From Flaccisagitta enflata (taxonomy: Eukaryota), in NCBI GenBank assembly GCA_965153355.1, contig OZ231126.1, positions 3,162,001 to 3,226,000 of the forward strand: 64,000 bases of DNA. The letters run 5' to 3'. The first letter of the stretch is position 1; each line of letters begins with the position of its first letter. The position numbers were made by a program, and so were the translations under genes. Of this stretch, positions 114 through 64,000 are shown in pieces. The notes beneath the pieces are model-generated. The model ran no database searches. It was not told where the DNA came from and saw only the letters and a list, made by a program, of their open reading frames with translations.

Positions 114-712
114 TCCCAGCACCATTAGGATGACTGTTCAGACAAGAAAAGAGAATGAGCACTATTGAAGACAGGATTTTACGTTTCGCTTAAGCATCAG
201 GCACATAAACAAGATACTCTCATACAGATGAGAATACGGTCATAATTGAGAACAAATGTGCGCAGCTTTCATTGACCACGGGAATGGGTGTGCTTGTATG
301 ACAAGCGGATCAATATTCCTCACCATACCCAAACTGTATAAGATGGAAGGGGGCCTCCATGACTAGTTAATACGAGCACCACTTCTGGTTTTCCATAAAA
401 CTGAATCTGAAAAACATTCAGTTTCCATCTAGCCCAAAAGCAAACTGCTTACCAAAAGTAGCAAATGAGTGTTACCTGTTTAACCAAAATTGTTATGTCA
501 CACAGATTTGATAAAACATTTGAACACGGTGAATAAAAAACGATGTTTTTGTGACGACAAACCTGATGGCATATTTTTGCTAATGCTGAAGACCCTGATA
601 GATTTTTCAGTCCACGGTTTGTGCTCTCGGGTCAGCATCAGTTTTGCTACTCGGTCTATGCGATTTTGTATCTAAGATTCCCTTTGCCCTGTAACGGTAA
701 GCCATATTCGAG

Positions 713-3434
713 ATGGAGCCGACAGATCCTAACTCCGCGGTGTTGATGCTGCCAGCGGATCACTTTCCATTTGGAGAAGACTGCAAACTATCGCGCTTGT
801 TCCAATCGGTCCTTTTCCATCATGATGTTCAACCCAAGGTTGTGGATATCTTGCAAGAGCAGGAAATCTTTTCACTTCAGGAGATACGTCTCGCCGACCC
901 GGATGGCAATCAGGAGAGCCAGAATCTTTTTCAGGAGATTGCAAATCAAGTTTCTTCTCCCGTGCGTTGTCTCAGATTGAAGAAAGCCTTCCGTCGAATG
1001 CTCCGTCCGGATCCATTGGCGGCCATCAATGACTTGCCGTCTGTCGCTGGCCATACTTCCTCTGCTGTGAATGCTATTACCACGGGCGCCACTGCCATCG
1101 GTGATGCCACTTCCACTAATTTGGCATCTGAGAGGGTGGCAAACAACATGAATGTTACGGTCAAGGAGTCAACTGTTCAAGAGCAGATTAATGCAAGCAC
1201 AGTCATTAAAAATGTAAATGTGACAGATAGCACCAAGGAACTTGGGAAAGATGATTTGAATGAATTAGAAAAAGAATTTCGAGAATATCTGAAAGAAAAC
1301 ATTAAAAATCATCATGGAGAAATCTCCATTCCGGCTTCCAAACAACGAGCAAAGTTGAGTGAAGCTGTTCTTAATTTGAAAGTAAAACTAAAGAGAGAAG
1401 CCGAGGAACCGCATTTTGTCCAAGAGACGAATGTATCAAACGAATCAGAATTCGCTCAAAATTCTGATTCTGATTCTGATTCTGATTATTTCGATTATTT
1501 TCATTTATTTTCTGATTCTGATTCTGATTCTGAGTCAGAGATGCAAGGTGCAAATTCTGAATCGGTGCCAGATACTGAAACCGACATGCCATATCAACTA
1601 TCAGCATACACACCAGATGAGGACCTTGATGAAGAGAGTTCTGATGATTTTCAGGAGCCAGTTGAGTTCATTGAAATATGTTCCACCATTGAAAGTGGTA
1701 ATAGGCTTGTGATAATAACAGCTCCCGGAGGAAGAGGAAAAACCACAATTGCCAAGAAGATAATGTGGTGTTGGGGAAATGATACCTACTTTCAACTCCA
1801 AGGCTTTTCCATGGTCATTTGGATCGATGCAAAGTACATTGACAATGATAGCAACCTCTTTGAAAATTTTGTGAAGCAATACAACTTCATCGAGGGAAAA
1901 TTTTCACCATCTAAATGGAAGAATTTACCCGAAGTGATCCGACAAATTCAAGAGCGAATCGTTTGGATGGTGGATGGCCTCGATGAAAGCGCAAATCATT
2001 CACTAATGGAAACATTCATCAAAAAAGAGATTGGCCGCTATGAGAAAAGTTCATTTATCTTTTTGACAAGAGAGGAGGGAAAAGAAATCCTGGGGCCAAT
2101 TGCTAATCGCGCGGTTGAATTTACTCTCTGCAATCTTGATGAAAACCTATGCCAGGAGTTCATCAAAGTGTACCCTTTCTCAGAGAACAAATTTGAGAAA
2201 ACAGAAGAATTATCATCTCAGTTACAAATCAATGTGGCGCTCAAGTCAATGTTTTCTGTCCCAATCAACGCTGCTATGATTTGCCGTCTGTTTGATGATA
2301 AGGGATTTGACGGTAATATCAAGGATGAATTGGACATCATTGGAAAAAATCTCGCAATGAACATCAAAGCCGCTCAGTTCAAGCAAATTGAAGGACAACT
2401 GGCTAAGGATTATGTCTCCGCACAGGAAAAAGAGCGTCTGGATTTGAAAAAACGAAAGCTACTTGAAACCCCGATTGATGAAGTGCAAAAGAAAAATAAG
2501 GAGACACTAATTAAGTTAGGACATGCAATTTACAAATGCAATGGCAACTCAGTGATAGGGTTTACCAATTTGAAGGAATGGATAATTGAGGAAGCATTAC
2601 AGGACCTTAATGTGACTGAGGAGGATAGGTCTCTCATATTAAGATTGGATATTTTTGAGAAAATACTTGACGGGGATCAAACGATGCTGCGTTTTTACCA
2701 TCGAAACATCCGCGAGTACCTGGTCAGTTTGTTCATTATCAGCGTCACAGACAGAGACTTGGTCCTACCAAGAGAAACAGGCTGCTCAAGCGCCATTAGA
2801 AAAATTGGAAAGATTGCCCTGTGTGGGATCATCAGTCATCGGTCCCTCCGTCACTACCCAGAAGGAAAACTGCAAGATGCTCATCTCGCCATTTTTAAAT
2901 GCGCAGCGGCGCAATTATTCAGTAGTTCAGACCTTGACAGCAAATTCGTGATAGGTCAGCTTTGCAAAATTGTCAAACATATTTTCGAAAGCTGCAAAGA
3001 GGCTGATCAATGGCGACTTTTGGAAATCATCTTTGAAGCGATTTATTATGCAACGCAAAGGCCAGAAATGAAGGATGATCTTCAGACTCTTTTGCTTTAT
3101 GTTATCAAAGTTGCCAAGAAGCAATCATTTCCAATCAATCCAAATTGGGCTGATGCCATCAACAAAGGCATCCTTGATGCTATTGTGACTCATGCCAAAG
3201 ATCTCGAAAACTATGGCTGCCAAAGCTGCATATCTCTGGCGGTATTCGGCAAACGGATGAGATCGCTGTTTCAGCGGGAAAGGACGTCAATGTACAACTG
3301 GCCTGAAAATCAACCAGTTGTTATCATTCCGTTTGTGGCAAAGACCGATGAATACATTGTCATAAATCTCCCTGGAGAACCTGGAGCCAAACATGTTACC
3401 CAAGGGTTCAAATCTTTATTTTTGAAAAAAAATG
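713..3434 (+). CDS. NACHT-domain NTPase (NLR/STAND-like), exon 1: SAM-like N-terminus, acidic Ser-Asp linker, NACHT and helical domains
   Basis: Walker A (ITAPGGRGKTT), Walker B (VWMVDGLDES), sensor-1-like FIFLTR, PINAAMIC and the winged-helix FYHRNIREYL motif. Donor AATG|GTATGC at 3434/3435 (phase 1). The 1108-aa ORF in the track reads through a 321-nt intron (3435-3755) that contains a T/C-rich tract and a HINE. Confidence 0.9.
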
Positions 3435-3552
3435 GTATGCTATATTATGCTCTTTCTCTCTTTTATTCTTTCTTTCTTTCATTCCTCTTTCTTTCTTTCT
3501 TTCTTTCTTTCTTTATTTCTTTCTTTCTTTCTCTCATTCTTTCTTTCTTTTT

Positions 3553-3696
3553 AGTTGCGGACACGCAACTCTATAAGAGCCTTCGTCCGTCCGTCCGTCG
3601 GTCCGTTGGTGTGCACGAGTCGAAAAGTGTGAAAACGCGCGTTTCCGCCCCTGCCCACCCATCCGCAACTGGTATAGCCTTGTATCCGGCCTTGTT
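3553..3696 (+). mobile_element. Short Helentron-type HINE/DINE-1-like element in intron 1 of the NACHT gene
   Basis: Starts after a T-run with palindrome AGTTGCGGACACGCAACT, then a (GTCC)n microsatellite and subterminal inverted copy TCCGCAACT. Ends ...GTATCCGGCCTTGTT. No TSD beyond flanking Ts. Confidence 0.75.
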
Positions 3697-3755
3697 ATTC
3701 TTCATATTCACAAGGACTTTCATTGTCAAATTTTATGTTTCTGTGTTTTTTTCAG

Positions 3756-3967
3756 ATACTGTTACCTCTCCAATACCTCTTCAATACCGTCAAATGGATT
3801 TTCAATCCAGATTTGGAGATGGATATGAAGTGATCGCCGAATGCATAGATGGAAACATTTTTGTCTGGGGCGGCATCAGTGCTATAGAGACTCATATGAC
3901 GCAGAGCCAGATCGGACGAGCAATTTCCAGTCACACCTTTCTAAGGGCTGTTGCGATTTTTTTTCAC
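3756..3967 (+). CDS. NACHT gene exon 2, carrying the first Kelch blade (GNIFVWGG); 3' boundary uncertain
   Basis: Acceptor TTTTTTTCAG|AT at 3755/3756 is in phase with exon 1 and translates DTVTSPIPLQY...ECIDGNIFVWGG. Possible donor CAC|GTATGT at 3967, but coding-like sequence may end near 3928. Confidence 0.7.
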
Positions 3968-6218
3968 GTATGTGATCATTTCATGAGTGTGGTCACATAT
4001 CATATTAATGCTATCTCATACCTCGATAGTCAAAAATGAGTTACAGGCTCGAGTAAAGTCGTTTTGTGGGTGAAAATCGCTAAGAAAATGGCCCTAAACG
4101 AAGGAAATTGAGTTCCCTAGCCTGTTTCATCAATGAAGATGTTGAAACAATCTGACAAAACCAACGCTTCCAGTATGAAAACAATGGAACGTATAGCTAA
4201 TCCTGGGTTTATTTTCACTACAAAAAAAATCTGGCGGCTTCCGGGGTGAAAGTGTGCGCATAAAAAGAATTATGAAGTGAAGATGTCATGGTGACCTTCA
4301 GAAATTGATTATTAGTACAATTTTTGTAATATTACTTAAAGAAGCTATCAAACAAGCAACGAGTGGGGATTTTTTAGTAGAATTAGTATGAATATGAGTC
4401 ATAGAGCATTGTTGCTCAGATTTGACCAATGGGGAGCTTTTTTTATATGCTAAATCGATTTTCAGAGTGAGGTTCTCACTCTTTTTCAAGATCTCGAAAA
4501 TATTATTTTCGTTTTTGAGAATTAAGAATAACAAAAATAAAGAAAAAACTAACAATTCTAAGAACATACCGGCCTTTGTATGATAAATAGCTAGCCCGGT
4601 ATGTTTTTGTTTTTTTCATTTTTTCATTTTTTATGCAAATTCTTAATTCTCAGTGAATTAACTATGTCATCTTTTTTCTTCTTTTTTTCTTCGGATTTTC
4701 CTTGAAATCAGTGAAGATTGCCAGACGAAAGACAAACACATCGGGTTCAACCTTAGTTGTAGGGGAGCAAGTAGGGACATTATCAGGGCTGGACATGGGT
4801 CATTTTCAAAAAAAAAGTACATTGGGCAGGGGCAGTAGCATGTTCTAGCAGAGGCAGAAATAAGCGGAATTTATTGATTTTACCAACCCCCTAAAGAAAT
4901 GTGTCAACAGAGCACAAACACAGAATTATAAACAACATGTACCCTTTGCAGATATGTATGAATGTATGAATGAATGATTGCATGAATGAATAAATGAATG
5001 AATGAATAAATGAATGAATGAATGAATGAATGAATAACTGAAAGACTGGCCGGATGAATGAATGAATGAATGATTGATTGGATCGATCAATCAACACAAG
5101 AAGGCACGAGAAGCAGGAGAGAACTTGATGGAGCGTGCGGGTGGGCACGTGCGTGCGTGCGGCTGGGCAGGGTTAGAGATAAGAGACTAACCAAAGTATT
5201 TGGGCAGGAGCGGTTACTCGAAACCTCCAATATTAGCTGAAAAAGCAAACGGGGATTGCTGCCCAAAAACCTATCGACCAACTGACCGACGGCGTTTTGA
5301 GCTCTGAGTTCACTGCGCCATTCCAAATTCCCAAATGATCCTCTTTCACTGCCCATCCGCACGTGACTTGGGTAGCCGTGTATCTGGCCTTGTTTTAAAT
5401 TCCAACAAACAAAAACTCTTCTAAGGCAGAGATTATTCTCTTAGCGGATTTTACTCCTGCTTAGTGCTTTTAGTTGAGTTAGTTGGTCAGTCTGTCGGTT
5501 GGTAACACGCGTTTTTCGCATTACCGCTCCAGGCCAAATGCTTGGTTACTTTTTTTAATCACTGTCCCTGCCCACCCCCACATTACTTTGGTAGCCATGT
5601 ATCCGACCTTTTTTTTGTTGGGGACATGCAACTCTACATTTTGCTGTGTCGGTCGGTAGGTAGTAGGTTGGTCTGTCCGTCACATTTCTGAATTGTGAGT
5701 GGTTTTGCATTACTGCCTATGCCCAACTGTCCGCTACTGTCTTGCCTCTTTGTCAACATTTTGGACAATGAGGTATACTCTTGATTAAATGAGTGAATGA
5801 AATTAGATGAATGAATTTTACAAAACCCTCGAACAAATCAATGCATGACTGTAAATATGATTAAATGAATGAATGAATGAATGAATGAATGAATGTATAA
5901 ATGAATGAATGAATGAATGAATGAATGAATGAATGAATGAATGAATGAATGAATGAATGAATGAATGATCAAAAGAACGACTTATATGATGACAAATATG
6001 AAAGAACTGGGAACATGTAATCATGTTATATACGATACGGTTTTCATGGCCAGAATAAGAAAATTATGACATGACGAAGGATACTATTGAAAAATGAATT
6101 CATAGGTGAACAAATTGAAAAAAAAATAAATGAATAAGAAAGTAAATAAGTGAATGAATAAATGAACAAACAAATAAATGAAATATGAATAAATGATACA
6201 AATGATATTTCATTGCTC

Positions 6219-6961: not shown

Positions 6962-7343
6962 CATTGCTCTGGAACAAAAAAAAAACAAATATAAAAGGTT
7001 TGCTTGGTTTGGATGAAAGAAAACCGTAAACTTGCATGTTTGAATGCTTTTCATGATTAAATGAGTGAATGAATTTATATAAAATAGACAAATATTACTC
7101 TAATGCCATATCACAACAATAGGGTAGCAAAAATCAATTGAAAAACAACTCATTGTGAATAAAATTAATGAATTTCTCCTAATAGTTTATTTTTCCTTAT
7201 TCAATTAGTTTTTTTGCAATAAATAGCTAAAAAATCAATATTTTGCATTGATTTTTTTGCAATGTGCTCAATATACAATGCCTAATGCTAACCAAAAGTT
7301 GAATAGCTTAAAATTAATAATCTATTTTTTGACCTATACGACT

Positions 7344-8282
7344 GGGACCTGCATGGCTGATCTTGCTCCGTGTCATATTTACAATGTCAGAGAGAAATCT
7401 TGGAAAACCATCCAAGCAACAGGTGACGTTCATCCCGGTTATAAATATGCCGCGAGTGTTGAGCTGAATCGTCTCATTTACCTATTTGGCGGTTGGGAAA
7501 GCTATTCTATTAACGGTTGGAAGGCTGTAAATTGCCTTTCGAGTCTCTCTGTCACTGGGGAATTCCGCCGAGTCCCCGTCAAGGATGACTCGTTGCCGTA
7601 TCCGCGGCATAAGTCAGTCGGTTGGACTTATAATGGCAATCTCTATTTCGCGTTTGGGGGATCTGGAGGGGACCAGCCAAAGCTTGAATTTATCAAAGGC
7701 GGGGCCTGGACCAGTGGAGATGGCGAAGGTTTTACGAATGAGGTTTTGAAATTTGATTTGAGAGAAAAGTCCTTTTCCTTTTTGGCGACAAAAGGACCTT
7801 CACCTGCACCTCGCGAGGATTGCGGATTCGCAAAGCTGCCGACGAAAGTTTTCATTCATGGTGGTGGCGATAGATATCGTTGTTTGCGTGACTTTTTTGT
7901 GTTAGACTTGCTATCCAATGAATGGACGGAATTGAAAGACTATGGTCTCCCTTCCGCCAAACGAGGGCAATCATTGATAGCATTAGGTCCGCGGCAAATC
8001 ATGCTTATGGGAGGATCTGAGTCGATTAATGGGAGATATCCGTCAAATGCAGTTAAGATCTACGATGTGGCTACTGAGACCTGGAAGGAAGATCAAACGC
8101 TGCCGGTTGAAGTCTGTGGCGAGCAAGGAGGATTGGCTTGGCATAATTCAGTCGCGGTTAAAGAAAATAAGCGGGTCACCAAAGTTATAACCTTTGGAGG
8201 CTATATCAGGGGATATAAATACAACACGGGCAAATACTCGTCCCATCTCCTAGAATTTGACGTAGAAGCCGCACGCCAGTAA
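7344..8282 (+). CDS. Kelch beta-propeller (KLHDC1/2-like), probably the terminal exon of the NACHT gene; 5' boundary uncertain
   Basis: Five Kelch GG motifs (IYLFGG, YFAFGG, VFIHGG, IMLMGG, VITFGG) plus W-containing blade ends. IYNVREKSWKTIQATGDVHP, SVGWTYNGNLYFAFGG and GPSPAPREDCG recall KLHDC2. Stop TAA at 8280-8282. Confidence 0.85.
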   Translation, partial: GTCMADLAPCHIYNVREKSWKTIQATGDVHPGYKYAASVELNRLIYLFGGWESYSINGWKAVNCLSSLSVTGEFRRVPVKDDSLPYPRHKSVGWTYNGNLYFAFGGSGGDQPKLEFIKGGAWTSGDGEGFTNEVLKFDLREKSFSFLATKGPSPAPREDCGFAKLPTKVFIHGGGDRYRCLRDFFVLDLLSNEWTELKDYGLPSAKRGQSLIALGPRQIMLMGGSESINGRYPSNAVKIYDVATETWKEDQTLPVEVCGEQGGLAWHNSVAVKENKRVTKVITFGGYIRGYKYNTGKYSSHLLEFDVEAARQ

Positions 8283-14806: not shown

Positions 14807-15029
14807 TCAATGATCCAACTGTTTGAGTTGTTGTTCCTCAAGCGGTTGCACGTCGGCGACTTCAAAGAAGACTTGATGCCCATATTTGGCTCTGATGGTC
14901 GTCAATGACCTGAAGAACGTTTCTTTGTCCAAGTAAGAATTGAGGCGCAGAATCAAAGGTGTCAACTCGGAAGCCGAGTATCCGGAGTGAAACGTCAAAC
15001 TAGCGTCCCATGAGCCAACGTTCTTTAAT
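14807..15029 (-). CDS. CCNB3: Cyclin B3 terminal coding exon (end of the C-terminal cyclin fold); upstream exons not found in the window
   Basis: Acceptor CACAG|A at 15030/15029. Translates LKNVGSWDASLTFHSGYSASELTPLILRLNSYL...LTTIRAKYGHQVFFEVADVQPL, matching the cyclin B3 C-terminal signature (W..TL.YYSGY...EL...V..LN......L..I..KYSH.VFFEVA). Followed by a long AT-rich 3' UTR-like region. Confidence 0.8.
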
Positions 15030-15691
15030 CTGTGTCGTGGTTGGAGGGAAGGAAAAAGGGGAGAAAAAAAGGAGGGAATACAAGGTCAAATTGTAAAAAA
15101 AATGCAACAGAAAAACAGCAACGACAACAGAAAAACAACAACAACGAAAACGGAAAAAAAAAACAACAACAAAAACGGAAAAACAACAAGAACCAAAACG
15201 GAAAAACAACAACAACGAAAACGGAAAAACAACAACAATAACAACAACAAAATCAGAAAACAACGACATTAAAACAACAGCAAAAAAAACAGCAAGACTA
15301 CAAGATCAGAATATCGACACCAACAACAGCCGATTACAACAGAAACAATGACAAAAGAAAACAACACAACAATCAAAAAGGTCAAAAGAAACAACAACAA
15401 GTGGCGTTCGCCATAACGTGTTCCACAAAGACTTGATTTGGCATGAAAAAGAAAAGCAATAATTCATTACACAAATCTAATAATAATAACCAGACAAATC
15501 TGTGTTATAGACAATGGCCGCCTGTGGGTGGCCTAACTACCATGCATGGGCGACCTCACTGCCGCCGATGGGCGACCTCCACTACCATCCTGCCGCCTGT
15601 GGTGGCCCCGCCTGTGTGGCCTCACTGCCGCCTGTGGTGGTCACCACCACCTGTGGGTGGTCTCACTGCCGCCTGTGAAGCAGACATTACC

Positions 15692-17023: not shown

Positions 17024-18020
17024 CTATTTTGTAAGTATGGATTGAGGGAATGCCTCGAGCAGCACCTCCCAAATGCGGGAGAAAAGAGCGAAGAATCTAA
17101 AGCGATAAGCTTGGGGAGAGGATTGCCACTTGAGGTGGATGGCACGGACGAGGTGGACAAGTGGAGCAACATTGAATATTGCCGCAATGATGTTACTTTT
17201 TGGCGCGCCTCTTCTGACACGATCAATGATATAAACTTAAACGTTTGCAAGATTTATTTATGAGGATCAATTTATCCTCCAATCACTTAAAATATTGATG
17301 CAAAAATTATCAGTGCAAATGAACGATTGAAAATTGTAAAGCTAAAGAAATTGAAGAAAGGAAAATTTGATTATTAGCAAGCATCTATTTTTTCCCACAT
17401 TCTATAAAAAAAACCTCTCAGTACGCCCTCCCATGACTCAATGCGTCACACGATCAGTTGGCCGATCCAATTGTCGATCCGTATCACATAACTTAATAAC
17501 TAATGTAGTTTGAGAATCATTTTTTCATGTTCCTAATCGTATCACTGCTTGTTTTCAAAAGTCATTTTGGCCAAGGGGCGAGTATGAAGATGGTAGTGAA
17601 GAAACCAAACCACAGTTGGCCTTCATTGTAGTATCTGTAGCCAAGTGCCATGTCAGATCCAATATCTATGAGATAGATAGTGGCGCTCAAGATCAAGTGC
17701 GGAATGAAAATTTTGTCACGAGCCCAACTCAACAGATAGCAGCAGTTGTCTTTACGGCAGACGACAGTGAAGCAACTACAACTGGAAGAGGAATCCATTT
17801 CATGGACCGGATGAGTATGATCTTGAGTTGGATAAATCGGATCACTACCGAAATTGGTGATTCTGCTTATGCTATGTGTGTGGTCGATACATGTAGAAAA
17901 AGAATTAGTGACTTTGCATCGGCAAATCGATGGACACGAACATGAGCAGAAATCGTCGACCATCGAAGACACTGGATTACTACAGCATAGCGAAGCCGTT
18001 GATGCGCGATTAGCAGACAT
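17024..18020 (-). pseudogene. XK-related (XKR scramblase family) gene fragment with disrupted reading frame
   Basis: Segment 1 (17562-18020): YLIDIGSDMALGYRYYNEGQLWFGFFTTIFILAP, the XK N-terminal TM motif, ending in a stop with no clear donor. Segment 2 (17213-17024, after a CAG acceptor): FSRIWEVLLEAFPQSIL, the XK ExxxExxPQxxLQ motif, then frameshift/stop. Either a pseudogene or consensus errors. Confidence 0.65.
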
Positions 18021-19390
18021 TGCCGCTCTTTCAAGTTTCTTACTGGCTGGTAGGCTTTTAAAATCATGGAAAGTTATAGAGGTCGTTCAGACCTGGGAAG
18101 ATAGAATTTACCACAGAAGACAAATAAACTAAGACTGATTTGGAACTAATTAACTAATGAAAAGATGCTTTATTGCCCACGGGTGTTGGTTGTGAAACAC
18201 ATTTCCATGTATTCACGCCAAAGTATCATTATTCTTTTGAGAATTGTTTCAGGGAACAATAATGTTTAGAATTTGATTTATATAACTTTCAGAGAACAAG
18301 AATATTGCTCGTTCGATGGGTTACATGAGCATCACAGGGCTGTCACATAGCATAATTCCTTATATCTACAAAACAAGCACATTTGAGAATACATTGAAAA
18401 GTTTTAGCAAATTTCATTTTAAACAATGTTCCTTCAAAAAATTTCTCAAAATATTGATACTTTTGCATGAATACATAGAAATGTGATTCCATGGCAACCA
18501 ACACCCATAGGCAATAAAGCATCCTTTTATTAGTCTTATATTCAAACATTTAAATTTTAAGTTTATTTGTTTGGCTTTGTAATAATTTCTGCATTAAAAT
18601 CTAGACGATATCATCAGAATAAGGTTAATTAAATATCCTGTTCAAAAATTGATAATAAAAAGCCTTATTGTTAGATGGGAGGACAGCTTATATGTAACTT
18701 GGGTAGATTTGTTCGCCTTTCCATCTATAGGGCAATCTGGCTCCACCTTATTCAGTTTTTGAAGAATTTGAATTTGAATAACGCACAGGTAGCGCGGGAG
18801 CAGGAATGAACGTTACGAAACAAATTCCAGTTCTTAAGTTCTTTAAGTTTAACACGAGGTGCCCGCGAGCAAAATGTCATAAACAAAACCGGTTGGAGCT
18901 GAAATTCTGATATCTTATTCTTTTGAAAAATTTTTTGAAGTAACAATATTATACTCGATAGGAAGTGAGAGAAACAAGCCCAGGCGGGCAACTAGATGCG
19001 TCCTCTGCGTAATATCAGAAGAGGCGTAACCGACGGACGGACGGACGGACGGACAGACGGACGGACCGACCAACCGACCGACCGACGGACAGACCCTCCT
19101 ATAGAGATGCGATGACGCATCTGAAAAGAGGCCGGATAGACAAACACCAAACTTGCAGGGAGCAATCATTCAGATAACTCCCGTTAACGCCGAAAAAGCA
19201 TATAGTGTTACAGATCAACCGACCGATAGACAGATAGGCCAATAAATAGGTATAGCAGATTAAAGAGTCGCATGCACTCAATTCAAAGGCTACACAAACA
19301 AACAAAGAAACACACTCTCACACAAACACCCTAGTAAACATATTTTTACATAGACATAGACACACTCAACACGCATTCAACGTGACTAAC

Positions 19391-22759
<3,369 letters not shown>

Positions 22760-27483: not shown

Positions 27484-28127
27484 TTTAGGAGCGACAAAGC
27501 ACCTCTACAACTGGCTCTGTCCGTCAGTTGGTTGCTTGGTCAGTTGGTAACGCATTTGTTCGACGATCCACACGTCGCACCTTATTGGCCTACGTGGCCT
27601 TGTTCTTTTGTCTAAGAACAATTGTAAAGACGAAACAAGGCCGGATACACGGCTACCGGAGTCGCGTGCGGGTGGCCAGGGGCCATATTTGAGGTCACCA
27701 GACCATTTGGGCAGGAGCCATGAGGTCAAAGTAATAAAATCATAAAAAAAAAGTAAAGTGTGACCAACCAACCGACCAACAGACAAAGCGGGTTGTAGTC
27801 GCGTGCACGCGACTAAAAAGTCGCGTGAATCTTGCGTGAATCTTGCGTGTATTGGGTACACGGATACTCGGGTACACGGATATACGGCTACCCTAGTCGC
27901 GTGCGGGTGGGCAGGGGCACTTATGGAGGTTTCTGGGACGTTTGGGCAGGAGCAGTGAGCTCAAAACACGCTGAAATACGCTGAAAAAGTATAATAGGGA
28001 CCAACTGACGGATGGCATGACGGATGGACAAACGGACAGACAAAGCGGGGTGCAGAGTCGGGTAGCACTCGACTAAAAATATGTAACCTCTTTTTCTGTG
28101 TTGCTGTTTACCAAATCGCGTACAGTT

Positions 28128-28517: not shown

Positions 28518-29699
28518 CTCTAGATGTAAAATAGAAAATCATCATTTCTATCCGCTTTCTGGCTTTTATACAACTGCAGCGTGACGGAAACTGCACTTTT
28601 TAGATGCGTCCGTCAGGAACGCATCTCTATAAGAGGGTCTGTCCGTCTGCCAATCTGTCCGTTGGTGTGTCCAGTACGCCTCCTTGAAAATCATAGTTTT
28701 CGGCACTTTTCAACCGCGGCAAGGTTACATATCAATCCAAACACTCTTTGAGATGCTCTGAGGTCATTGATCTGTCCGTCGGTCCATCTTAGTGTCCCTC
28801 CATATATCTGGCATGTTCGGCGCCAAATTCAATAACGCAGAGACACAGCCAGGACGCTTCTTTGCGTTGTAGTGCGTAGGTAGAGCAAATTTGGAAAATC
28901 ATTTCGCGTGAAATTCTTAATTTCTCTCTGAATGCAAAATTTTGCGTTTCTAAGAACACGGCCCCTATCTTAAATGTCTTTAGAACAGGGCCAAGTTTTT
29001 AGAAATGCAAATTTATGCATTCGCATATTCACAGATTCAGAATTTCACGTGAGACAAGTCAAAGAATGGAGGCCAATTTTCTTTTTTTCTCAATAGATTA
29101 AACTGATTTTGAAAACATTAATGATTCTCAATGCAAATAGATAAGTAAACTATACTAAAAATATGATTTCTTTTTTAAAAAACTGAATTCAACATATTTT
29201 TTTTTCTCGAATATGATTTGACCATAAAAATTGCACCTTGACTTGCCCGGTCGGGCTTGTTAAGGATGATAGCCGAGCTTAAACAAACAACTTTTTGGCA
29301 GGATGCACGCCTGCCCCAAATCGCGGTTGGGCATGGGCATGGGCCACGCAATTTTGCAAAAAACAACTTGCATCGTAATATTTTTTTCATCTTAAACCAG
29401 TGGGGATAGCTACTAGTATTTGTACTACAAAATGGAAACGGAAGCGAACCTAAAATTGTGTCCTCGGTGAGGACTACTCACCGTATTTATTGTTTTGTTT
29501 TTGTGTTTGCGTTTCTCCTCACCAGACGTTTCCAAATTTTTAGGTGCGACAAAGCACCTCTATAACTGGCTGTGTCCGTTGGTTGGTCGGTTGGTCGGTC
29601 GGTTGGTCGGGTAACGCATTCGTTCGACGATCCATTGGCCTTGTTTTTATTTTGTTTTTTTATTTTTTTTTTTTTATTTTTTTTATTTATTGACTTTTT

Positions 29700-30370
29700 A
29701 GTTGCTGTAGTTGCAGTTGTCGTCGTTGTCGCTACTGTTGTTGTCGTCATTGTCGCTGCTGTCGTTGTCGTCGTTGTCGCTGCTGTTGTTGTCGTCGTTG
29801 CCAGTGCTGTTGTTGTCGTCGTTGCCGCTGCTGTTGTTGTCGTCGTTGTCGCTACTGTTGTTGTCGTCGTTGTCGCTGCTGTTGTTGTCGTCGTTGTCGC
29901 TGCTGTTATTGTCGTCGTTGTCGCTGCTGTTATTGTCGTCGTTGTCGCTGCTGTTATTGTCGTCGTTGTCGCTGCTGTTATAGTCGTCGTTGTCGCTGCT
30001 GTTATTGTCGTCGTTGTCGCTGCTGTTATAGTCGTCGTTGTCGCTGCTGTTATAGTCGTTGTTGTCGCTGCTGTTATTGTCGTCGTTGTCGCTGCTGTTA
30101 TTGTCGTCGTTGTCGCTGCTGTTTTTGTCGTCGTTGTCGCTGCTGTTATAGTCGTCGTTGACGCTGCTGTTATTGTCGTCGTTGTCGCTGCTGTTATTGT
30201 CGTTGTCGTTGTTTTTGTAGTAGTAGTAGTTGTTGTTTTTGTTGACTTCTCGGGTCGTGGTCATTGCCGTTGCAACTTTTTTTTGCTATTGTTGTTGCTC
30301 GTGTTATTGCTGTTGCTGTTGTTGGTTTTTATTGTTGTTGCCGTTGTTGTTGTGCATGTGTTGGTGCTGC
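29700..30370. repeat. 24-bp GTT/GTC/GCT-derived minisatellite
   Basis: Unit GCTGCTGTTATTGTCGTCGTTGTC; it produces spurious poly-V and DNDDNNSS ORFs. Confidence 0.95.
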
Positions 30371-30821
30371 TGTAGTTCTATTTCTTGATGTTGTTTTTTG
30401 CAACCGTCACTTTGACCCAGTAAAAGACAGAGACCCAGAAGTGATCTCGCCTTCGCCTTCGTTCATAGTACAAATAATCTACGTTTTCAAAAATTTTCCG
30501 CGCAGAAAGTAAACAATGATCGCTAAGCGACCTGCTGACCACAAACATTAACTCCAAGAAGCTCTTACTGCGAAGATTCTACATTTGTTGGCGGGAGGCG
30601 ATCAATAATAAAACAGGAAGTTGACACGTAAATTTGAGGTGAGTTTCAATGAATTATCGAATTGAATTATCGAATTATCGAATTGAATTATCGAATTATC
30701 GAATCGCTTGAATAATCTTTGAATCGTATTGCAATGTCGATGTTCGTAGTTGTATAAAGTAAAGCTCATTAGAAAATTTCATAATCCTCTTTGACGTTCT
30801 TGTCATTTCAGGTGGACGAAA

Positions 30822-32152
30822 ATGGTTTCCTTTGCTCTGATTCTGGTTTGCCTTCTTGGTCTGGGGATGTGTCACGCAGATGTAAAAAACAGTAAGTGTA
30901 GATTTTGATAGATACGATTGCTATCATGAAATGCAAAACTAAAGAAATGTCACCCTGTGTCACCGCTGAATAATTGTTGATGACAGTTTGCGACTCGAAT
31001 ATTTTTTTTTTTTTTTTTCTTAAATGCAAAGTTACTGCGATGGCGGATTTGGAAGGACGGATTCTCGCCGTCGAGAAACGATTAGGTATGTATGCCAAAT
31101 TGCCGTTTCAAACCATGAGAAAACAGAATCAATTACCCGAAATGTCACCCTTTGTGACTGCTGAATTATTGTTGATGACCGTTTTCGCCTTAATTGTTTT
31201 TGTTTTTTTTTAATTGCATAGGTACCGCGAAGTCAAATAAGCATTTACGATCTGCGGACCTAATGCACAATGAGAAATCCTGATATGTTACCCTTGATCA
31301 TTTCTGAGTTTTCGACGAGAGCACGTAGTCCGCTGTTCGCATCAAACTTTCTTTTAAACCTATATCTAATGCAGGGAATAACTCCAGGCAAAGTCTGCGC
31401 GCTGCCGGTCACCTCGACGCAATGGTGGAAGCCATGCGCGAGGGACTGAACATTCCCCGGATAGAATCCGATATTCGCACTCTCCAAACAACATTAGGTA
31501 CAGTGTAATGGTCGATATCATGCGCGAAAAGCTCAATATCCCGCAAATTGAATCAAACATTCGATCCCTCCAGACAACATTAGGTACAGTATATCACAAC
31601 ATGATATCCTTATATATAGCCTGCAACCTATATTGCTTAATGTACTATTGATTGATCTATCCCTAATTTCATTATATGGTTCTAAAGCCACTTTAATGTC
31701 TTACATTAGAGGGAAGAATGTGTCAGCTTGGAACGTTTGGTTGCTCTGGCGATGAAGAATGCGAGGCAATGAAGGTAAGTAGCAAGCTCGCTTTCAATTT
31801 GCATATTCCACATTTTGTAATCATTCCTTTTTCCTCTCATGCCGATCAATCACGTTGATTCCATAATTTCTAAGGCTTGAATATCAATCTTTTACAGAAA
31901 GACGAGGGCGGCACCGACCGCGAAACGTACGATAAGTACATCTATTTCTCCCCACCGTTTGCAAAGACGCCAACCGTGAAAATAGCCATGCAATCGGCAT
32001 TTATGAATGCTGTTGTTGAAGACGACGGCGACTGGTGGGGTTACCATTTCTACGCTGATCACGTGTCCACGTCCGGGTTCCAGGCCAATGCCGAAATGAT
32101 TGATAGGCATTTCAGGAAGATCCGTGGGACCTGGATCGCCTGCTCTGTTTAG
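30822..32152 (+). CDS. Secreted protein, ~188 aa: signal peptide + coiled-coil stalk + C-terminal H-type-lectin-like domain
   Basis: Coding exons 30822-30891 (MVSFALILVCLLGLGMCHA signal peptide), 31032-31085, 31375-31497, 31710-31774 and 31898-32152, all GT-AG and in phase (1,1,1,0). C-terminus IYFSPPFAKTPTVKIAM...ADHVSTSGF...GTWIAC is H-lectin-like. Upstream non-coding exon donor at 30639; AATAAA at about 32255. Confidence 0.82.
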
Positions 32153-32524: not shown

Positions 32525-35685
<3,161 letters not shown>

Positions 35686-36293
35686 TTTTGGCTTGTCTCC
35701 ATTCTGTGTCCAGTAGAAAATAGCAAGCAAAACAAATCAAAAATGTCTTATTATAATTTATATGATATTATAGGTTTTCATTGACCGTTATCAATCTCAC
35801 AGTATACTCAAAAAATTTCAACTCATTACTCAAATGATAAGTTATCAAAAAATGGTATAAAAATCAAATTTTCCCCTCCTCGATTTTTTGCTTTTTAGCC
35901 GCGTGCACGCGACTCTACAACCTGCTTTGTCCGTCGGTCGGTTGGTTGGTCGGTTGGTCGATCACACTTTACTTTTTTATGATCTTATTTCTTTGACATC
36001 ACTGCTCCTGCCCAAATGGTCTGGTGACCTCAAATATGGCCCCTGCCCACCCGCACGCGAATGTAGTTTCCCGAATTGAGACGAGGAAGAGTGAAATGCT
36101 TTGACAGTTTCTGAATTCAGTCGCGTCATGTTGCTAAGTTACCTAGTGAACATAAACAGTTACGTGAAAACTGACCGTACTGAGAGGACGTAGTCGGAAT
36201 AATTTTCTTTCCGCATTTCAATTTTCTTCTCTAATTCTCTCGATCTCTCGATCAATTCAAATTTTCTCTCGTTGTGAATATTTCGGGCAGAAA

Positions 36294-37239
36294 ATGCCAC
36301 GGGATCGTTTTTACGACAGCGACGATTCAGAAACCGAAGCCTACGCCCAGTATGGGAGCAGTCGCAGCGGCAGCAGCTTTTCTCGGAGTCGCTCCCGCAG
36401 TCGCTCAAGAAGTCCGGCTGGGCCTCGGCGCCGCGTTTCGCGCTCTCGCGAGCAATCAGGGGAGCGCGAACGCGTGCATGGGGGTCGCGCGCGTGGCGGT
36501 CAGTCACGCGAGCGTCCCAGATCTGTTGTTTTGCCCGCATCATCTGGTATGCCGCCATTGGCTAATTTACCGCCTTCCGATCTTCGTTCTGAAATCGAAT
36601 CTTCGTTGGCCCAACGAGTCACCGAGGCCGTCACGTCTAACCTCAAGACGCAGTTGGTGGAGATTCTGTCAGAGAGAGATGGGCGATCATCGGACGTCGC
36701 CAAAGAAATGGAGTCCCTGAAAGCTGCTCAGCAACATACTTCGCTGCTGTCGGAAGCTGCGGAGTTTACAAGCGAATCGGCTCAGAGGCAGTTTATCGCT
36801 TTTGCTAAAGTGAAGTCGGGCATCTCCAACGCTCGTCGTCTTTTCCAGTCCGGCGACGCCACAGGGGCGGATGCTGCTTTGAAAGAGGTGGATTCCATAA
36901 CCGACTTCCGCCTCGACATGATTCGTCGCGCCGATTCTCAACCCGGTGGCTGGGCTGCAGCCAATGTTTATGAGAAAAAGATGGCAGGTCAATTAGACAG
37001 TAAGAAGGATCGAATCTGGAGAGCCGCCGTTGAAGAGTCAAATCAAACGCGCAAAGATAAGAAGAAGCCCTCAGGTTCTCAGAGGTCAAATCAGTCCTTC
37101 CAAGGTAAAAAGATACTACATACAAATATTTAATCTTATTCCTGCTATTCGGCAGTCGTGAATTTCCACTTGTCCTTTCAAGAATTTGTTTTAACGGTTC
37201 TTTCTTTCAACTTTTGTCTGTTGACGCTCGATTTACAAT

Positions 37240-37330
<91 letters not shown>

Positions 37331-37800
37331 CAGATTCAGATTGCTTTCTCGTCTTTGTGGTTGTTAGTGTCTCTCCGGCCAATACACGCTTCCCTGTCAT
37401 TTCACGAATTCCGTGTCTCGTATTTGGGAAAGGGAAGTTTTCCGGAGGAAAAATGTAGTTTCCCGAATTGAGACGAGGAAGAGTGAAATGCTTTGACAGT
37501 TTCTGAATTCAGTCGCGTCATGTTGCTAAGTTACCTAGTGAACATAAACAGTTACGTGAAAACTGACTTTCCCATCCCACCCAACCCTTAGTTGGCAGCT
37601 CCGCGAGACCGCGTTTGGAGTGTTATGCATGTGGCGCGAGAACGCATATTGCCTCCGATCCTTCCTGTCCTGAACGCGCAAATCGCCACTACTCCTTTGG
37701 CCACGACCAGAGACGTGCTAACTACAATGCTAGAGGAGGCCCCGTCCTCCCTTCTTACAACGCAGGATCGAGCCACGCCTCACATTCATCCCAAAGTTGA
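36294..37800 (+). CDS. Spliced gag-like protein (~339 aa): RS-rich N-terminus, helical core, C-terminal CCHC zinc knuckle
   Basis: Exon 1 36294-37104 (CAAG|GTAAAA, phase 1) plus exon 2 37592-37800 (CCCTTAG|TT) gives in-frame ...SFQVGSSARPRLECYACGARTHIASDPSCP... The RLDMIRRADSQPGGWAAANVYE segment resembles the DIRS-gag 'IADxSxxGWxxVxEY' motif. Confidence 0.8.
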
Positions 37801-37970
37801 TTCTGGTAAGGATAGTGTAGCTGGTACCGTGAGGGCCTCAATACTCGTGTTACAACATCGTCGAAGTAAGTAGCAATTGTGTAGGTCAAAAGCCTTTGAT
37901 GAGTTTTTCTAAGTTGGTGTCACAGCTAGATCATTTAATAGGGTTTGAAGTTTGGTTATGGCTTAGAGCT

Positions 37971-38167
37971 TGTCTCAGATGTTCCTAGAATGGAACGGGA
38001 AAGACATTAATTATTCAAAGTTTGTCTCAGATGTTCCTATTATGGAACGGGAAAGACAGTTGGATTGTTTAAAGCTTGTCTCAGATGTTCTTAATATGGA
38101 ACAGGAAAGACAAAGTTCATTGCTCTAAACTTGTCTCAGATGTTCCTAAAATGGAACGGGAAAGACA
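37971..38167 (+). repeat. Four 36-nt hairpin-forming repeats inside the split-repeat element
   Basis: Consensus TGTCTCAGATGTTCC-N6-GGAACGGGAAAGACA at 37971, 38023, 38077 and 38132, separated by 16-19-nt spacers. Confidence 0.9.
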
Positions 38168-40473
38168 ATTTTTCCTTGCTCAAAGTTTATAAGGCTGTAA
38201 GTATTTGTAAGTATAGAGGGAAGGCAGTATTGTATCTCTGTAATATTAATTATTTTCTTTTCCAGGTGAGCAAAATTGAAGTTTTTGCCTATGTTGGGCC
38301 TTTCTTCAGCTGGCTCAAAACGTGCCTCTTTTGACCATTTAGTTTTGTGCCAATTTGCATCAATAGACCCTTCAAAAGGAAGATAGTTGACAATGCTCTA
38401 AGCTACTTGCCTACTTGCTGTTTCCGTATCAAAAATAATCGATAATTCTATACTTCTATGAATTTCATTCTTTTAACAGTTTCAGGAACAACAGAGCCTC
38501 GTCTCTTGCCATTGATCACCAAGCTTAAATTACAAGCATTGGCAGATGCAAAATTGCTTGCTCTCATTCCTACAGGATTCTCAATACAGAGAGTTACAAT
38601 TTGTTCGAGCTGGCCTTGCTAATTGACAATTGGTAGACTTGTGTATTTCCTTCATAAAGGGTTCAGTTTGTATATTCACATACTCCACATTCGACAGGAT
38701 ACTGCTCATTTGACGTCTTAGTGACAATACTCTAATAATTGTTTTATTTCAGCTTCAAAAATTAACTTGTTTTCTTTGCAGGAGTGGATTTAATAATCAT
38801 TAAATAAAATTCAGCTCAATTTTTTAATTCTTTGCCATCACCTTCTTTGCCTCCCACCCTCCTATCCAGGCTGAAGTCCAGTTTCCACGAAATTCCGCCT
38901 CATTCGACATTCGTCAATCCAGTTGTCATCGCCATGTTTCGTCCCACTTCCGGTGACGACTCACTTCGTTCATTTTGAGTCCCAGGATCAATTTCCCGTT
39001 CTAGTCCAATCTACTATAGTCGCATTCTTCATACGGCAAGAAGTCAATTTAGCATACGGCAAGAAGTCAATCTAAATTGCTCTCATTCCAAAGCGACATG
39101 TGATCAAAATGATTTTGTCTTGAAATTCATTGTTCCTAATTGATTTTTCAATCTTGACATGACATGACATGATTCGAGCTCAGTCTCTGTCCTCTCTCCG
39201 GCCAATACACGCTTCCCTGTCATTTCACGAATTCCGTGTCTCGTATTTGGGAAAGGGAAGTTTTCCGGAGGAAAACTTCAGTAGCCGTGTATCCGGCCTT
39301 GTTTTCTTTTAAAACTGAACATTATGATATTCATTTTTTTTTTTAACCTCATTCTTCTTGAACAATAAGCATTTTTTCTTTTGTCATTCAATGGACAACT
39401 AATTGAGGGACATTCCCCTCCATTTTCATGTCATTGGGTTGATCCTAAGCAGAGAAATGAAATTTTTCTTGGAGCGTATCAATTCGCGAACACCCCCAAA
39501 TTTGTTCCATACGCATACCTAACGCTTAACATATGCCACTATGGTGTGAAAATGACACATTTTATATAAAATCTGACCACACCACGTGAAAGCGTGAAAT
39601 TTAACTCCCAGGCGTTCAGTCACAATGAAATTTTATATTTTGTTGGTCTTGAAAGTGTTGCAGAATTGATGCGCTCATCGAACAATCATCATAGTTATTT
39701 TCTTCTTTTTGGAAGTCAAGATTTTGCGGACTTTGAAGGAAAAAAATACAATTTATCCAATTTACAAAAATGTCCATATCTCATGAACCCTTTGAGCTAT
39801 ACACACGATCTTCTGCAGGAAAACAGATTTTACCAAAAGAGATCAGGAGAAAAAATTTGGTATTCTGAAGATGAGTCAAACTAGCCCAACCAGCCCAACC
39901 AACCTACCAGATGAAAAATGAAAAAGTGGCACAACTTTCGAATGAGTCTGCCGATTTGGCTGAAATTTTGCATGAAAGTTGTTGAAGAGTATCTACATTA
40001 CTAGTTTGAGCTTATAGCTTGGCCGAACAAGAGGCACAAGTGGCCCAACTGTTTGCATATCTAGCCCTGCTAGGCTAAGGTTGGTTGGTTTTGGTTGGGC
40101 AGGTCCAGTCAAAAAGGCTTACATGTGCAAGTTTTGTAACTGCCTGCTGGTGGGTTCCTATTCGGGCAGGGTCCCCCGTTGAAAATTCGTGGATGTTTGG
40201 GCAGGGGCAGTAATGCAAACAAGGCCGGATACACGGCCACCAGTTGCGGACGGGTGGGCAGGGGCGTTTTCCCACTTTTCAACTCGAGCGTGACGGACGG
40301 ACGGACGGACCAACGGACCAACGGACCGACAAAGCCTCTTACAGAGTTGCGTGTCCGCCACCAAAAAGTGCTCAGGGATATTGCAAGATGTAAAGTCGCG
40401 TATCCGCGTATAAAATGTTAAGGATGGACCAACCAACCGACATGGCTAAGTGCAGGGTCGCTTGTCTGCGACT

Positions 40474-42240: not shown

Positions 42241-42818
42241 AAATAATAGGCAAAGGGTAGTAAAAGTTAATGAATTTTTCTGAAAATTGGTACACAAGCT
42301 CCCATTGACATAAAAATAACACTGGTAAAGTTTCATAAACTTCTGAGGCCTGGTTCAGAAGATATGAGAGGGTTTGACAGTAACAGAGTAACAGAGTAAC
42401 AGACTACACAAACAGGCTACTTCATAGTCACCGACGAAAACTGTTCGTCGGGGACAAAAAGAAAAAACAGGGCCGGATACATGGCTACCCTAGTCGCTTG
42501 CGGGTGGGCAGGGGCTGTATTTGAGCAGGAGCAGTGAGGCCAAAGACCGCAAATACCCCAAAAAAGTAAAGTGTGACGGACCGATGGACCGACAAAGCGA
42601 GATGTAGAGTCGCGTAGCACGCGACTAAAAACACATGTACTAACAAACAAACAAACAATAATGTAAACAAAAAACAAAAAACAAACATGCAGCTCCATGG
42701 AGGCAAATCAGGGTCCGACGATAACGTAACAACGTCTCCGCCATGCCGGCATAAGCCAACCTAGGAGATCCATTCGCTGTACTACCCTAACACGCACACA
42801 CGCGCGCACACACGCGCG

Positions 42819-48290: not shown

Positions 48291-48372
<82 letters not shown>

Positions 48373-50207: not shown

Positions 50208-52734
<2,527 letters not shown>

Positions 52735-59561: not shown

Positions 59562-59647
<86 letters not shown>

Positions 59648-61867
59648 CTCTCTCCTTCCTCTCATGAGACAGTTGGGGCCTGGCCCGAGCAACAACTCAC
59701 TTGGAACAGAGTCATCACCGGCAAAGGGTGGACAATACATCCAATTGAGTCCCGCAGAAGGCAGATCCAGACAGTTGCCTGTTGGGAAGAGAGAGTGGAG
59801 AAGAGAGAGAAGAAGAAGAAGAAGAAGAAGAAGAAGAAGAAGAGAGAGAGAGAGAGAGAGAGAGAAAGAAAAAGACAGACAGACAGACAGATAAAAATAT
59901 GGCCAGACAAAGTGACCAGAAGACCGACTTAGAGACATGTAGCTACATGAGGAGAACGACAGAAAGGTTTAGAAAATTGCAAGGACCCAGACACAAATTT
60001 GAATCTCATCATGAATGGGTGGGAACTGCGCAATGGGCGTGGGCGGAAATGCGCATGGGCGGAAATGCGCATTTTCGCTCTTTTCAACACCGTCACCAGT
60101 TACAGACGAAAGTGAAATACAAGAAGTTAACCCCCCAAAAACTGTAGCACCCCCCCCCCTAAACCGCGACATGAAGAAAAACATATAAGGTAGGGAATGG
60201 AAGCTTATATCCATACAATTAGCCTCATCAGAGCATTTTTGGAATTTCATTCCCAGTGAAGAATTATAGCAAGAAAACCAGTGAAAAATTGCATTTTTAG
60301 CATTATTCAAAAAATATTAAATTTGGATAGTTTTTTAGCTGTAGCTTTTTACGGGGATTGAAATTCCAAAATGTTTTTCTGCGACAAAAAAAAAAGCAAA
60401 ACAAAATACAAAACTAATACGATCCGCTTCCTTTTCTTACAAGCATGTATAACAACCTAGATTTTTTTCACCTTTAATTTGATCGATGGTGTAAGCCAAG
60501 CCGGTCCTAAAGTCGTGAATTTCCCTGATTGCGACCCCTTCAAAGTCCTCAATGTCGTCCATGTCGTCAAACACCATCGTCGGAATATGATCGTATCGTG
60601 CCAACAGACGAGGCTGATCGTACCAAAAACGAGTCGTACGCTGCCACAAAAATCAGGTAACGTGGGTTAAGTTATTGATAACACGCGCCGTGCTTGCGGA
60701 CACGGGCAGTAAACACGAACTAAAAAGTAAATTGTGACCGACAGTCCGACTAAAAAGTGGCTGATAGAAAGTCAAAACCAATCATAAATGAAAGAAACTA
60801 AAGGAAACAAGTACCCCGGGGGTACAACGATGCGTCCACATGCGGCTTAGCTTGTTAAGAATGATGCAATATTGCATCAACCTTGTGGAATGATGCAATA
60901 ATCTGAGATATTTCCAAGATTCTATGCATTTTCATCATTCTCCAACTCGATCACCACGGACCGACCAACCAGCGGACGGGCGTGCGGACGGACAAAGCCT
61001 CTTATAGAGATGCGTGGACGCATCTAAAAATAAGAAAAACAAGGCCAATAAGGTGCACCGTGTGGATCGTCAAACGAATGTGTTACCGTCCGACCAACCG
61101 ACAAACAGACCAACGAACACAGCCAGTGATAGAGGTACGTTGGCGCGCCCAAAAAAAGGAAGAGTCAAATAAAGAATGAGTGAATGAGATCAGGTATAGA
61201 AAGAAGTATCTAGATAGAAAAAAAAGAAAAAAAAAAGAATGCGAAAAGAGAGGAACAAGTTACGCGAGGTCACAATATCGTTGCGGACTGGTGGGCAGGG
61301 CATACAACCCCAGCCTATTAACCTCTCACTCAAGCGCGCGCACACACACACACGCACACACACACACAAAAAAAAAAATATCACTGCAGCAACATGAAGG
61401 TGCGTTTTTCGCGTTCTCAAGTGGAACGTAACGGACTAACGGACGGATCAAGTCTCTATAAATAGAGTTGTATCAGTAGGACCCGAATTGTGTGTGTGTG
61501 TGCAATACATTACAGGAAGAAAAAATTACTTAAGAGGCTGATATTTGGAATATAGACTAATGAAACGATGCTTTGTTGCCCATGAGTGTTGGTTGCTATG
61601 GAAACACATTTTCATGTATTCACGCTAAAGTATCAATATTTTGAGAACATTGTTTAAAACAAAATTTGCTACAACTTTCCAACAATATATTTTGAAGTGG
61701 CAGAGTAGCTTAACAACAGCCGTGGCCCCTTGCTCATCAACAGCCCTGGCCCCTTGCTCATCAACAGCCGTGGCCCCTTACCCATCAACACTCCGTGGCC
61801 CCTAGCACGTGGCCCCTTCCGTAATGGGGCCCGTGGCGAATGCCCCCCTACCGAGAGCAAGCATACC

Positions 61868-63455: not shown

Positions 63456-64000
63456 CTAAAATCCACTTCAATACCAATAAAGGCAGCTAATCGCCGTAGG
63501 AAAAAAGTCGTAAATGCTGAGAGAGAGAGAGAGAGAGAGAGAATGAATGAGAGAGAGAGATAAAGAGAGGGACAGATGGATGGACAGACAGACAGATAGA
63601 TGGATGGACAGACAGACGGAAGGACAGACAGACAGATGGACAGACGGACAGAGAATGACACAGAGAGAGAACGCTTGTTTTTCCACTTGAAAGAACGCTT
63701 GTTTTTCCACTTGAAAGTACGCTTATTTTTCCACTTTTTCACCATGAATAGACTGATGGACCAACAGACCAACAGATGGTCTGATGGATAGAAGAGTGAG
63801 AGACTTTGCTGCTAGCATGTACAATCATCATCTGGGACAATTTGAAGTTCAAATAGACTTCAATATTGAACTTAATTCCTTATTTTTGGGAAAAATGCGA
63901 AATATACAAAAAAATAGAAAAAAATTCAGAAAATCATAGCTCTGAAACTATAGATCGCACAGAATTCTGTTGGCGTCATCTGAAAGAGGAGATTAGCTCT

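Follow-up and report, generated by a model that had tools for sequence, protein, structure and literature searches.

In a 64-kb stretch of Flaccisagitta enflata DNA (contig OZ231126.1; hereafter the window, whose positions are used throughout), we describe a mobile element of 3,215 bp at 36061-39275 on the plus strand, organized in the order A1-X-B1A2-Y-B2, in which one predicted intron of a gag-like gene encloses the whole internal repeat pair B1A2. At odds only somewhat better than even, we read it as a non-autonomous split-direct-repeat (SDR) retroelement of the PAT-like/Ngaro/VIPER class that has kept only its gag-like gene and would obtain reverse transcriptase (RT) and tyrosine recombinase (YR) in trans. 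The layout itself is solid, and assignment to the SDR tyrosine-recombinase retroelements is probable; a switch in which splicing separates messenger RNA from replication RNA is proposed as a plausible consequence of where the predicted intron lies.

Element layout and insertion site

The order of the parts emerges both from reading the sequence and from repeat searches. Within the window, the 5' terminal repeat A1 (36061-36175) and the internal repeat A2 (37453-37567) are 100% identical over 115 nt (blastn E 3e-58), or 116 nt if the preceding A is included, and the internal repeat B1 (37370-37452) and the 3' terminal repeat B2 (39193-39275) are 100% identical over 83 nt (blastn E 1.5e-40), all in plus orientation and just as the sequence-only reading that preceded this analysis had placed them. 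B1 directly adjoins A2, and the junction reads GGAGG-AAAAA-TGTAG, with four of its five A's accounted for by the end of B2 and one by the start of A1. Since this count matches, B1A2 is exactly the sequence obtained when the two outer ends, B2 and A1, are joined. The segments between the repeats, X (36176-37369) and Y (37568-39192), have no mutual similarity in the within-window search, and blastn finds no further copy of A, B or the element body within the 64 kb. The identity of the repeats had been taken as a sign of recent mobility, and it extends over 198 bases only (A plus B together).

Both flanks of the element belong to one very abundant interspersed repeat of the host, which served as the insertion target. 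The left flank (35945-36060), ending in CACGCGA, matches 27780-27662 on the minus strand at 90.8%, and comparison with uninterrupted copies in the window identifies the right flank (39276-39311, beginning CTTCAGTAGCCGTG) as its continuation. The three uninterrupted copies, all on the minus strand, at 27662/27656, 42494/42488 and 51451/51445, read CACGCGA followed by CT(CC/AG)GG and TAGCCGTGTATCCGGCC (or TAGCCGTG at the same position); at the occupied site, CACGCGA is followed by the element and then by CTTCAG and TAGCCGTGTATCCGGCC (or TAGCCGTG at the same position). The same picture comes from contigs of three DNA runs, X1, X2 (a second sample labelled as the same organism) and X3 (a marine metagenome), aligned to 35700-39600. 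Many of these contigs carry joints leading from 36056-36063 to 39274-39286, and the joint 36060 to 39281 alone accounts for 72 contigs in X1, 88 in X2 and 31 in X3; the joint contigs are mostly paralogous copies of the host repeat, among which an allelic empty site looks the same as a paralogue. Taken together, the uninterrupted copies and the contig joints delimit the insert as 36061-39275, a single precise insertion, with one A at the boundary assignable to either side. In all three paralogous uninterrupted sites and in the joints of X1, X2 and X3, 0 bp are duplicated or lost, which bears out the earlier claim that the element lacks a target-site duplication (TSD).

The target repeat itself occupies 35831-36060 and 39276-39600 and holds a stretch rich in GGTC/GGTT. 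Its other copies in the window lie at 27626-27780, 42457-42525 and 51413-51469, all on the minus strand, with an inverted partial copy at 40185-40441. Its summed contig depth, which is not a copy number, runs to millions in X1 and X2 as against about 80-100 for the element.

A two-exon gag-like gene around a predicted intron

The gene begins with an open reading frame (ORF1, 36294-37133) of 279 aa, which when read without splicing stops at 37131-37133. We predict a GT-AG intron of 487 nt in phase 1 (37105-37591) that separates the coding part of exon 1 (36294-37104) from the coding part of exon 2 with its stop codon (37592-37800), so that the predicted spliced product is 339 aa long. The predicted donor reads caag/gtaaaaag at 37105, and the acceptor AG at 37591 is preceded by a pyrimidine-rich tract. 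Within the predicted intron lie a (GA)43 microsatellite (37242-37327) and the whole of B1A2 (37370-37567), 1.3-1.5 kb into the 3.2-kb element. These features agree with the sequence-only reading, including its observation that CTGAC (37563-37567), which it took for the putative branch point, is formed by the last five bases of A2; the motif ends 24 nt upstream of the 3' splice site.

Exon 1 is supported by the ORF call, by relatives and by an AF2 model, although that model is mediocre (pLDDT 62.1, pTM 0.27); in it residues 1-93 are disordered and RS-rich and residues 94-257 form a helical domain. An RS dipeptide run, SRSRSRSRSRS, lies at 36381-36431 (ORF1 residues ~30-46), and low complexity rich in RS and R is kept at the N-termini of the ORF1 relatives, as judged from their consensus. 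By analogy, the run recalls the RS domains of splicing factors, a resemblance that is suggestive beside an intron that may be regulated. Exon 2 encodes a zinc knuckle at 37621-37668. A CCHC-type knuckle had been claimed for the gene and is indeed present; its spacing, CX2CX4HX6C, is non-canonical in having X6 where X4 is canonical, and it falls below the Pfam cut-offs (zf-CCHC_6, 14.2 bits against 22; DUF7129, 16.8 against 30). Look-alike clusters in the Atlas come from Mollusca, Nematoda and Cnidaria, with zf-CCHC on 32-42% of the members, and are leads only.

The evidence for joining the two exons is comparative. BLASTP with ORF1 returned nine close relatives (48-65% identity, E 5e-70 to 1e-28), and a profile built from these nine matched 76 clusters among 1.84 billion representative proteins. 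In two of the family proteins, P0004 (343 aa) and P0025 (395 aa), relatives at 49% and 24% identity, respectively, the ORF1-like domain is followed without a break by the same CX2CX4HX6C knuckle and tail. The exon-2 peptide matches the C-terminus of P0004 at 62% of 65 residues (E 5e-25) and P0025 at 51% of 45 residues (E 2e-11), and P0004 terminates where exon 2 does, at a length of 343 aa against 339 aa for the spliced product. Both contiguous proteins, encoded on contigs of 1.8-1.9 kb, could derive from RNA or from intron-free DNA. A contiguous knuckle is found in 4 of 82 family proteins. Forty-nine database proteins have 45 aa or more beyond the motif RADSxPGGW; 47 of these continue, close to a conserved PF[QR]G, into sequence that is unrelated and often looks AT-rich, as would be expected if the ORF caller reads into an intron at that point. 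On this comparison of sequences, an interruption between helical domain and knuckle is the norm of the family, and the two-exon model put forward earlier is supported by homology, both by the contiguous relatives and by the common break point of most others.

This result also bears on whether the element might be two, namely a pair of short non-autonomous elements with the same ends lying head to tail, A-X-B (36061-37452) and A-Y-B (37453-39275). Formally, A and B delimit each half, and X and Y are alike in nothing beyond these repeats. Against such a pair, X carries exon 1 and Y exon 2 of what reads as one gene, whose parts are joined in P0004 and P0025, and the outer ends match a single clean insertion. 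We regard the tandem arrangement as very unlikely.

All 76 profile matches are at most 395 aa long, and there is no gag-pol fusion among them. The longest contigs of the family clusters measure 0.7-4.0 kb. Fused or longer forms, sought with ORF1 and with the exon-2 peptide, were likewise not found, which is weak evidence. In a cluster look-up the family carries no name other than 'hypothetical protein', and Pfam searches with 10 relatives gave only sub-threshold rows.

Probable class and relation to described elements

Pfam searches found no RT, RNase H, methyltransferase (MT) or YR in the scanned ORFs of the element or of the window. The window scan covered 91 of the 109 ORFs of at least 90 aa (81 plus 9 plus ORF1), the remaining 18 being frames that overlap scanned ORFs or low-complexity sequence, and a finer scan of Y (37568-39192) covered 27 of 36 ORFs of at least 30 aa at E<=0.1 and returned two chance rows only. 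Within these scans the earlier statement that the element lacks RT, RNase H and YR holds, and since there is no YR gene among the scanned ORFs, this copy is at most a non-autonomous member of its class. Neither a hammerhead ribozyme nor any other Rfam family was detected at E<=1, the search yielding two sub-threshold snoRNA-like rows.

Several classes were considered and rejected. Helitrons insert between A and T and have 5'-TC and 3'-CTRR ends; the element inserted between A and C, and its ends are ATGTAG and GGAAAA. A derivative of a long terminal repeat (LTR) retrotransposon (TR-GAG, LARD or TRIM) is contradicted by the unrelated sequences of the 5' end (A) and the 3' end (B) and by the missing TSD. 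A Crypton is contradicted by the lack of a YR gene in the scanned ORFs and by the presence of long split repeats, and a Penelope-like element (PLE) proper by the lack of RT or endonuclease (EN) in the scanned ORFs, by repeats that are not partial tandems, and by the negative hammerhead search.

What favors a YR-type retroelement is the combination of split direct repeats, the internal pair of which reproduces the joined ends, with insertion free of a TSD. Split direct repeats and TSD-free integration are hallmarks of the PAT-like, Ngaro and VIPER/TATE elements in the order DIRS (PMC4157794; PMC3266345; PMC6681497). The PAT-like (Pat1-like) elements, which are reported from Mollusca, Cnidaria, Echinodermata and Nematoda, share with the element the repeat arrangement A1, B1A2, B2 and the lack of a TSD; their first gene is gag-like and can include a zinc finger, which may hold for the element as well (PMC4157794; PMC3266345). 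They differ in that the element is 3.2 kb long, has no RT, RNase H, MT or YR in its scanned ORFs, and has X6 rather than X4 in its knuckle. Ngaro and VIPER/TATE also have SDRs, whose related repeats are often 100% identical, and a gag-like ORF devoid of recognizable domains that sometimes includes a CCHC box (PMC6681497); in these elements, however, B1, A2 and B2 are grouped at the 3' end, downstream of the YR, whereas here the junction splits a gene. SIRE is described as a non-autonomous derivative of VIPER and carries no gene, in contrast to the element, which keeps one (PMC6681497). The SDR arrangement itself varies, an example being an amphioxus Ngaro-like element (PMC2632668).

As read from sequence, then, three differences separate the element from described SDR elements: no enzymes are encoded in its scanned ORFs, it has kept a gene unlike SIRE, and its internal repeats lie in a predicted intron of the 5' gag-like gene. 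In the open-access literature (Repbase and supplements being outside this scope), we found no description of an SDR junction inside an intron or of an SDR element with gag alone.

A rival account dispenses with RNA altogether: a double-stranded DNA circle would be excised and re-inserted by a recombinase acting in trans, Crypton-like or other, and the intron would never be exposed to copying from RNA. Such a mechanism would fit the conservation of the intron position across a deep family, the lack of RT in the scanned ORFs and the absence of a TSD, and Cryptons are YR DNA transposons that integrate by microhomology with no true TSDs (PMC13465315). The published descriptions, however, attach split direct repeats to retro-type YR elements and give Cryptons short direct repeats only, the combination of a knuckle with an RS-rich tail is characteristic of proteins that package RNA, and P0004 and P0025 represent contiguous, apparently intron-free forms on contigs of 1.8-1.9 kb. 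We therefore consider a DNA-only life cycle quite unlikely.

Another intron-keeping class of retroelement could also have given rise to a non-autonomous derivative of this kind, PLEs being the obvious example. The intron of Penelope and of Chlamys-3_cRei crosses the boundary of pLTR, the terminal repeat, and body, much as the predicted intron here encloses a repeat junction, and PLEs retain introns through retrotransposition and have non-autonomous relatives (PMC8557442). The repeats of PLEs, in contrast, are partial tandem copies of one unit, whereas A differs from B and X from Y; the PLEs described there have a single RT-EN (RT-GIY-YIG) ORF and no gag, and hammerheads in many of them, with TSDs or tails (PMC8557442). 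No hammerhead, tail extension or TSD was found in the element, and a derivation from PLEs or their like is highly improbable.

The proposed splicing switch, its weaknesses and the rest of the window

In the model of Goodwin and Poulter for SDR elements, the transcript is said to lack complete ends, which the internal junction restores while closing a circle that the YR then integrates. Applied to the SDR retroelement proposed here, transcription would run from A1 towards B2. Spliced RNA would be the messenger for the full, knuckle-bearing protein of 339 aa, and intron-retaining RNA, which alone would keep B1A2, would encode the knuckle-less form of 279 aa. B1A2 would act as template or splint for regenerating complete ends and closing the cDNA circle; because it lies wholly within the predicted intron, only unspliced RNA could yield an integration-competent copy. 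Copying spliced RNA into cDNA would lead nowhere, which would also account for the retention of the intron throughout the family. RT and YR would be supplied in trans by an autonomous relative, and the YR would recombine the circle junction GGAAAA/ATGTAG with the target over a shared sequence of at most 1 nt.

The logic has a counterpart in retroviruses, which solve the conflict between translation and replication by means of a packaging signal inside an intron, a cis signal that splicing removes, leaving unspliced RNA as the only form passed on, and the TR-GAG elements of plants are non-autonomous LTR retroelements that likewise keep gag alone. Both differ from the element in having LTRs, DDE integrases and TSDs of 4-6 bp, as against split repeats and no TSD here. 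To our knowledge, the tyrosine-recombinase retroelements are the least understood order of retrotransposons, and we know of tests of end regeneration in DIRS-1 only. In this element of Dictyostelium, the internal junction region (ICR), which repeats the joined ends inside the element, is needed to restore full ends and essential for retrotransposition, and the RT works in trans on a copy that lacks the ICR (PMC7192593); both points agree with the proposal made here. DIRS-1 is unlike the element in having inverted terminal repeats, three ORFs and an ICR near its right end, with no natural intron described in that text (PMC7192593).

If the switch is real, an end-regenerating junction that splicing can remove would show how one pool of transcripts is divided between translation and replication, and would open the role of the internal junction to testing by simple observations on RNA and DNA. 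The small set of known non-autonomous elements of YR type would also gain a gene-bearing, gag-only kind. A wider reading, which we hold to be unlikely, is that the intron acts as a replication filter across a whole unrecognized family: every member's interruption would contain a copy of the joined ends, splicing would sort messenger from genome, and the members would be gag-only parasites of YR retroelements, or else autonomous partners would share the junction-in-intron design. The conserved RS-rich N-terminus might then feed back on the choice of splicing. Were this so, it would apply to the interruption present in most of the 76 clusters of a gag-like family from marine invertebrates; the breadth of this unnamed family, which lacks a Pfam match, suggests that such elements have been overlooked in marine invertebrate genomes.

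A number of observations weigh against the reading as a gag-bearing SDR retroelement. The label 'gag-like' rests on position, make-up and knuckle: ORF1 matches no Pfam family, and hence no Pfam gag family, at E<=1, Foldseek with the AF2 model finds nothing in the PDB at E<=0.001, and a VIA wide structural search reaches a best Z of 7.0 through generic long helices only. No capsid-like fold is seen among the Foldseek and VIA matches, a result that speaks neither for nor against gag. The internal repeats lie in the 5' half of the element, in the predicted gag intron, where described SDR elements have them between MT and YR or downstream of YR (PMC4157794). Overlapping ATTAAA/AATAAA motifs at 38799-38807 (plus strand), some 470 nt upstream of the element end, resemble a poly(A) signal that precedes B2, and a transcript stopping there would lack the 3' repeat. 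No relative of the locus was found in metagenome, viral and genome contig collections. The differences between the window copy and a variant in X2 point to no more than mild constraint, 11 of 24 changed codons being synonymous in a partial list.

Expression and copy number add to these objections. Among 12,162,974 records of raw reads from a poly(A) RNA run (X5), about 6/100 of the run, no read fell on the element; 67 aligned, all on the host-repeat flank (35831-36092), and 66 of these 67 fit the host repeat only partly. This is a weak indication that expression was low in that sample and is silent on splicing. In X1, contigs of the element body have depths of 79.9-129.4 and the A unitig one of 188.8, values that fit one element with two A's, that is, a low copy number. 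For B-like sequence the sums are higher. At position 39243 the summed depth in X1 reaches 772 in three contigs, all with A instead of G, against a body depth of about 84, and the bins 37403-37533 and 39106-39236, which cover B1A2 and B, have mean depths of 523 and 967 against the same body value; summed contig depths are not copy numbers, and what they suggest is that B-like, perhaps A-like, sequence may exist in more copies than the body, a hint of other elements that share these ends.

X2 holds the variant of the element, about 90-93% alike, which is either an allele or a second copy. Record 9, which spans 36146-37232, differs from the window copy in 48 letters and counts 26 gap letters, with 18 nt inserted after 36559; record 13, spanning 38064-39222, differs in 70 letters and counts 51 gap letters. 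X3 contributes four short pieces of the element at a depth of 2-3.

These data frame the last of the alternatives, that the element no longer moves and is a relic or a gene undergoing domestication, once inserted by a YR-type mechanism and now low-copy and silent or used by the host, with an intronic B1A2 that has no function. The low-copy depths, the lack of RNA on the element in the sampled portion of X5, the lack of a partner in view and the mild constraint relative to the X2 variant would all suit such a fate. Set against it are two intact exons with a stop that coincides with the end of P0004, the identity of the A repeats and of the B repeats, the existence in X2 of a variant about 90-93% alike, and the excess of B-like depth at 39243. 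We judge a relic to be quite improbable.

Among minor features, the non-coding 3' part of the element contains a tandem repeat of 3.7 copies of a 55-nt unit (37969-38167). Long GA/CT microsatellites, resembling the intronic (GA)43, recur at 34306-34460, 48294-48370, 52329-52436, 59566-59663, 59785-59891 and 63519-63601. Four overlapping frames of 155-269 aa on both strands at 29487-30375 are probably repetitive or low-complexity sequence, since Pfam scans of two of them, 257 and 269 aa long, gave no match. The host-gene exons recognized in the window are in keeping with a marine invertebrate. On the plus strand, the window further contains an uninterrupted frame of 1,112 aa with a NACHT domain (701-4039; E 6e-8) and host-gene exons with Kelch repeats (7227-8282; E 1e-43) and an H-type lectin domain (31874-32149); on the minus strand lie host-gene exons with a cyclin C-terminal domain (14810-15085), an XK-related match (17562-18086) and a protein-tyrosine phosphatase match (21747-22073).

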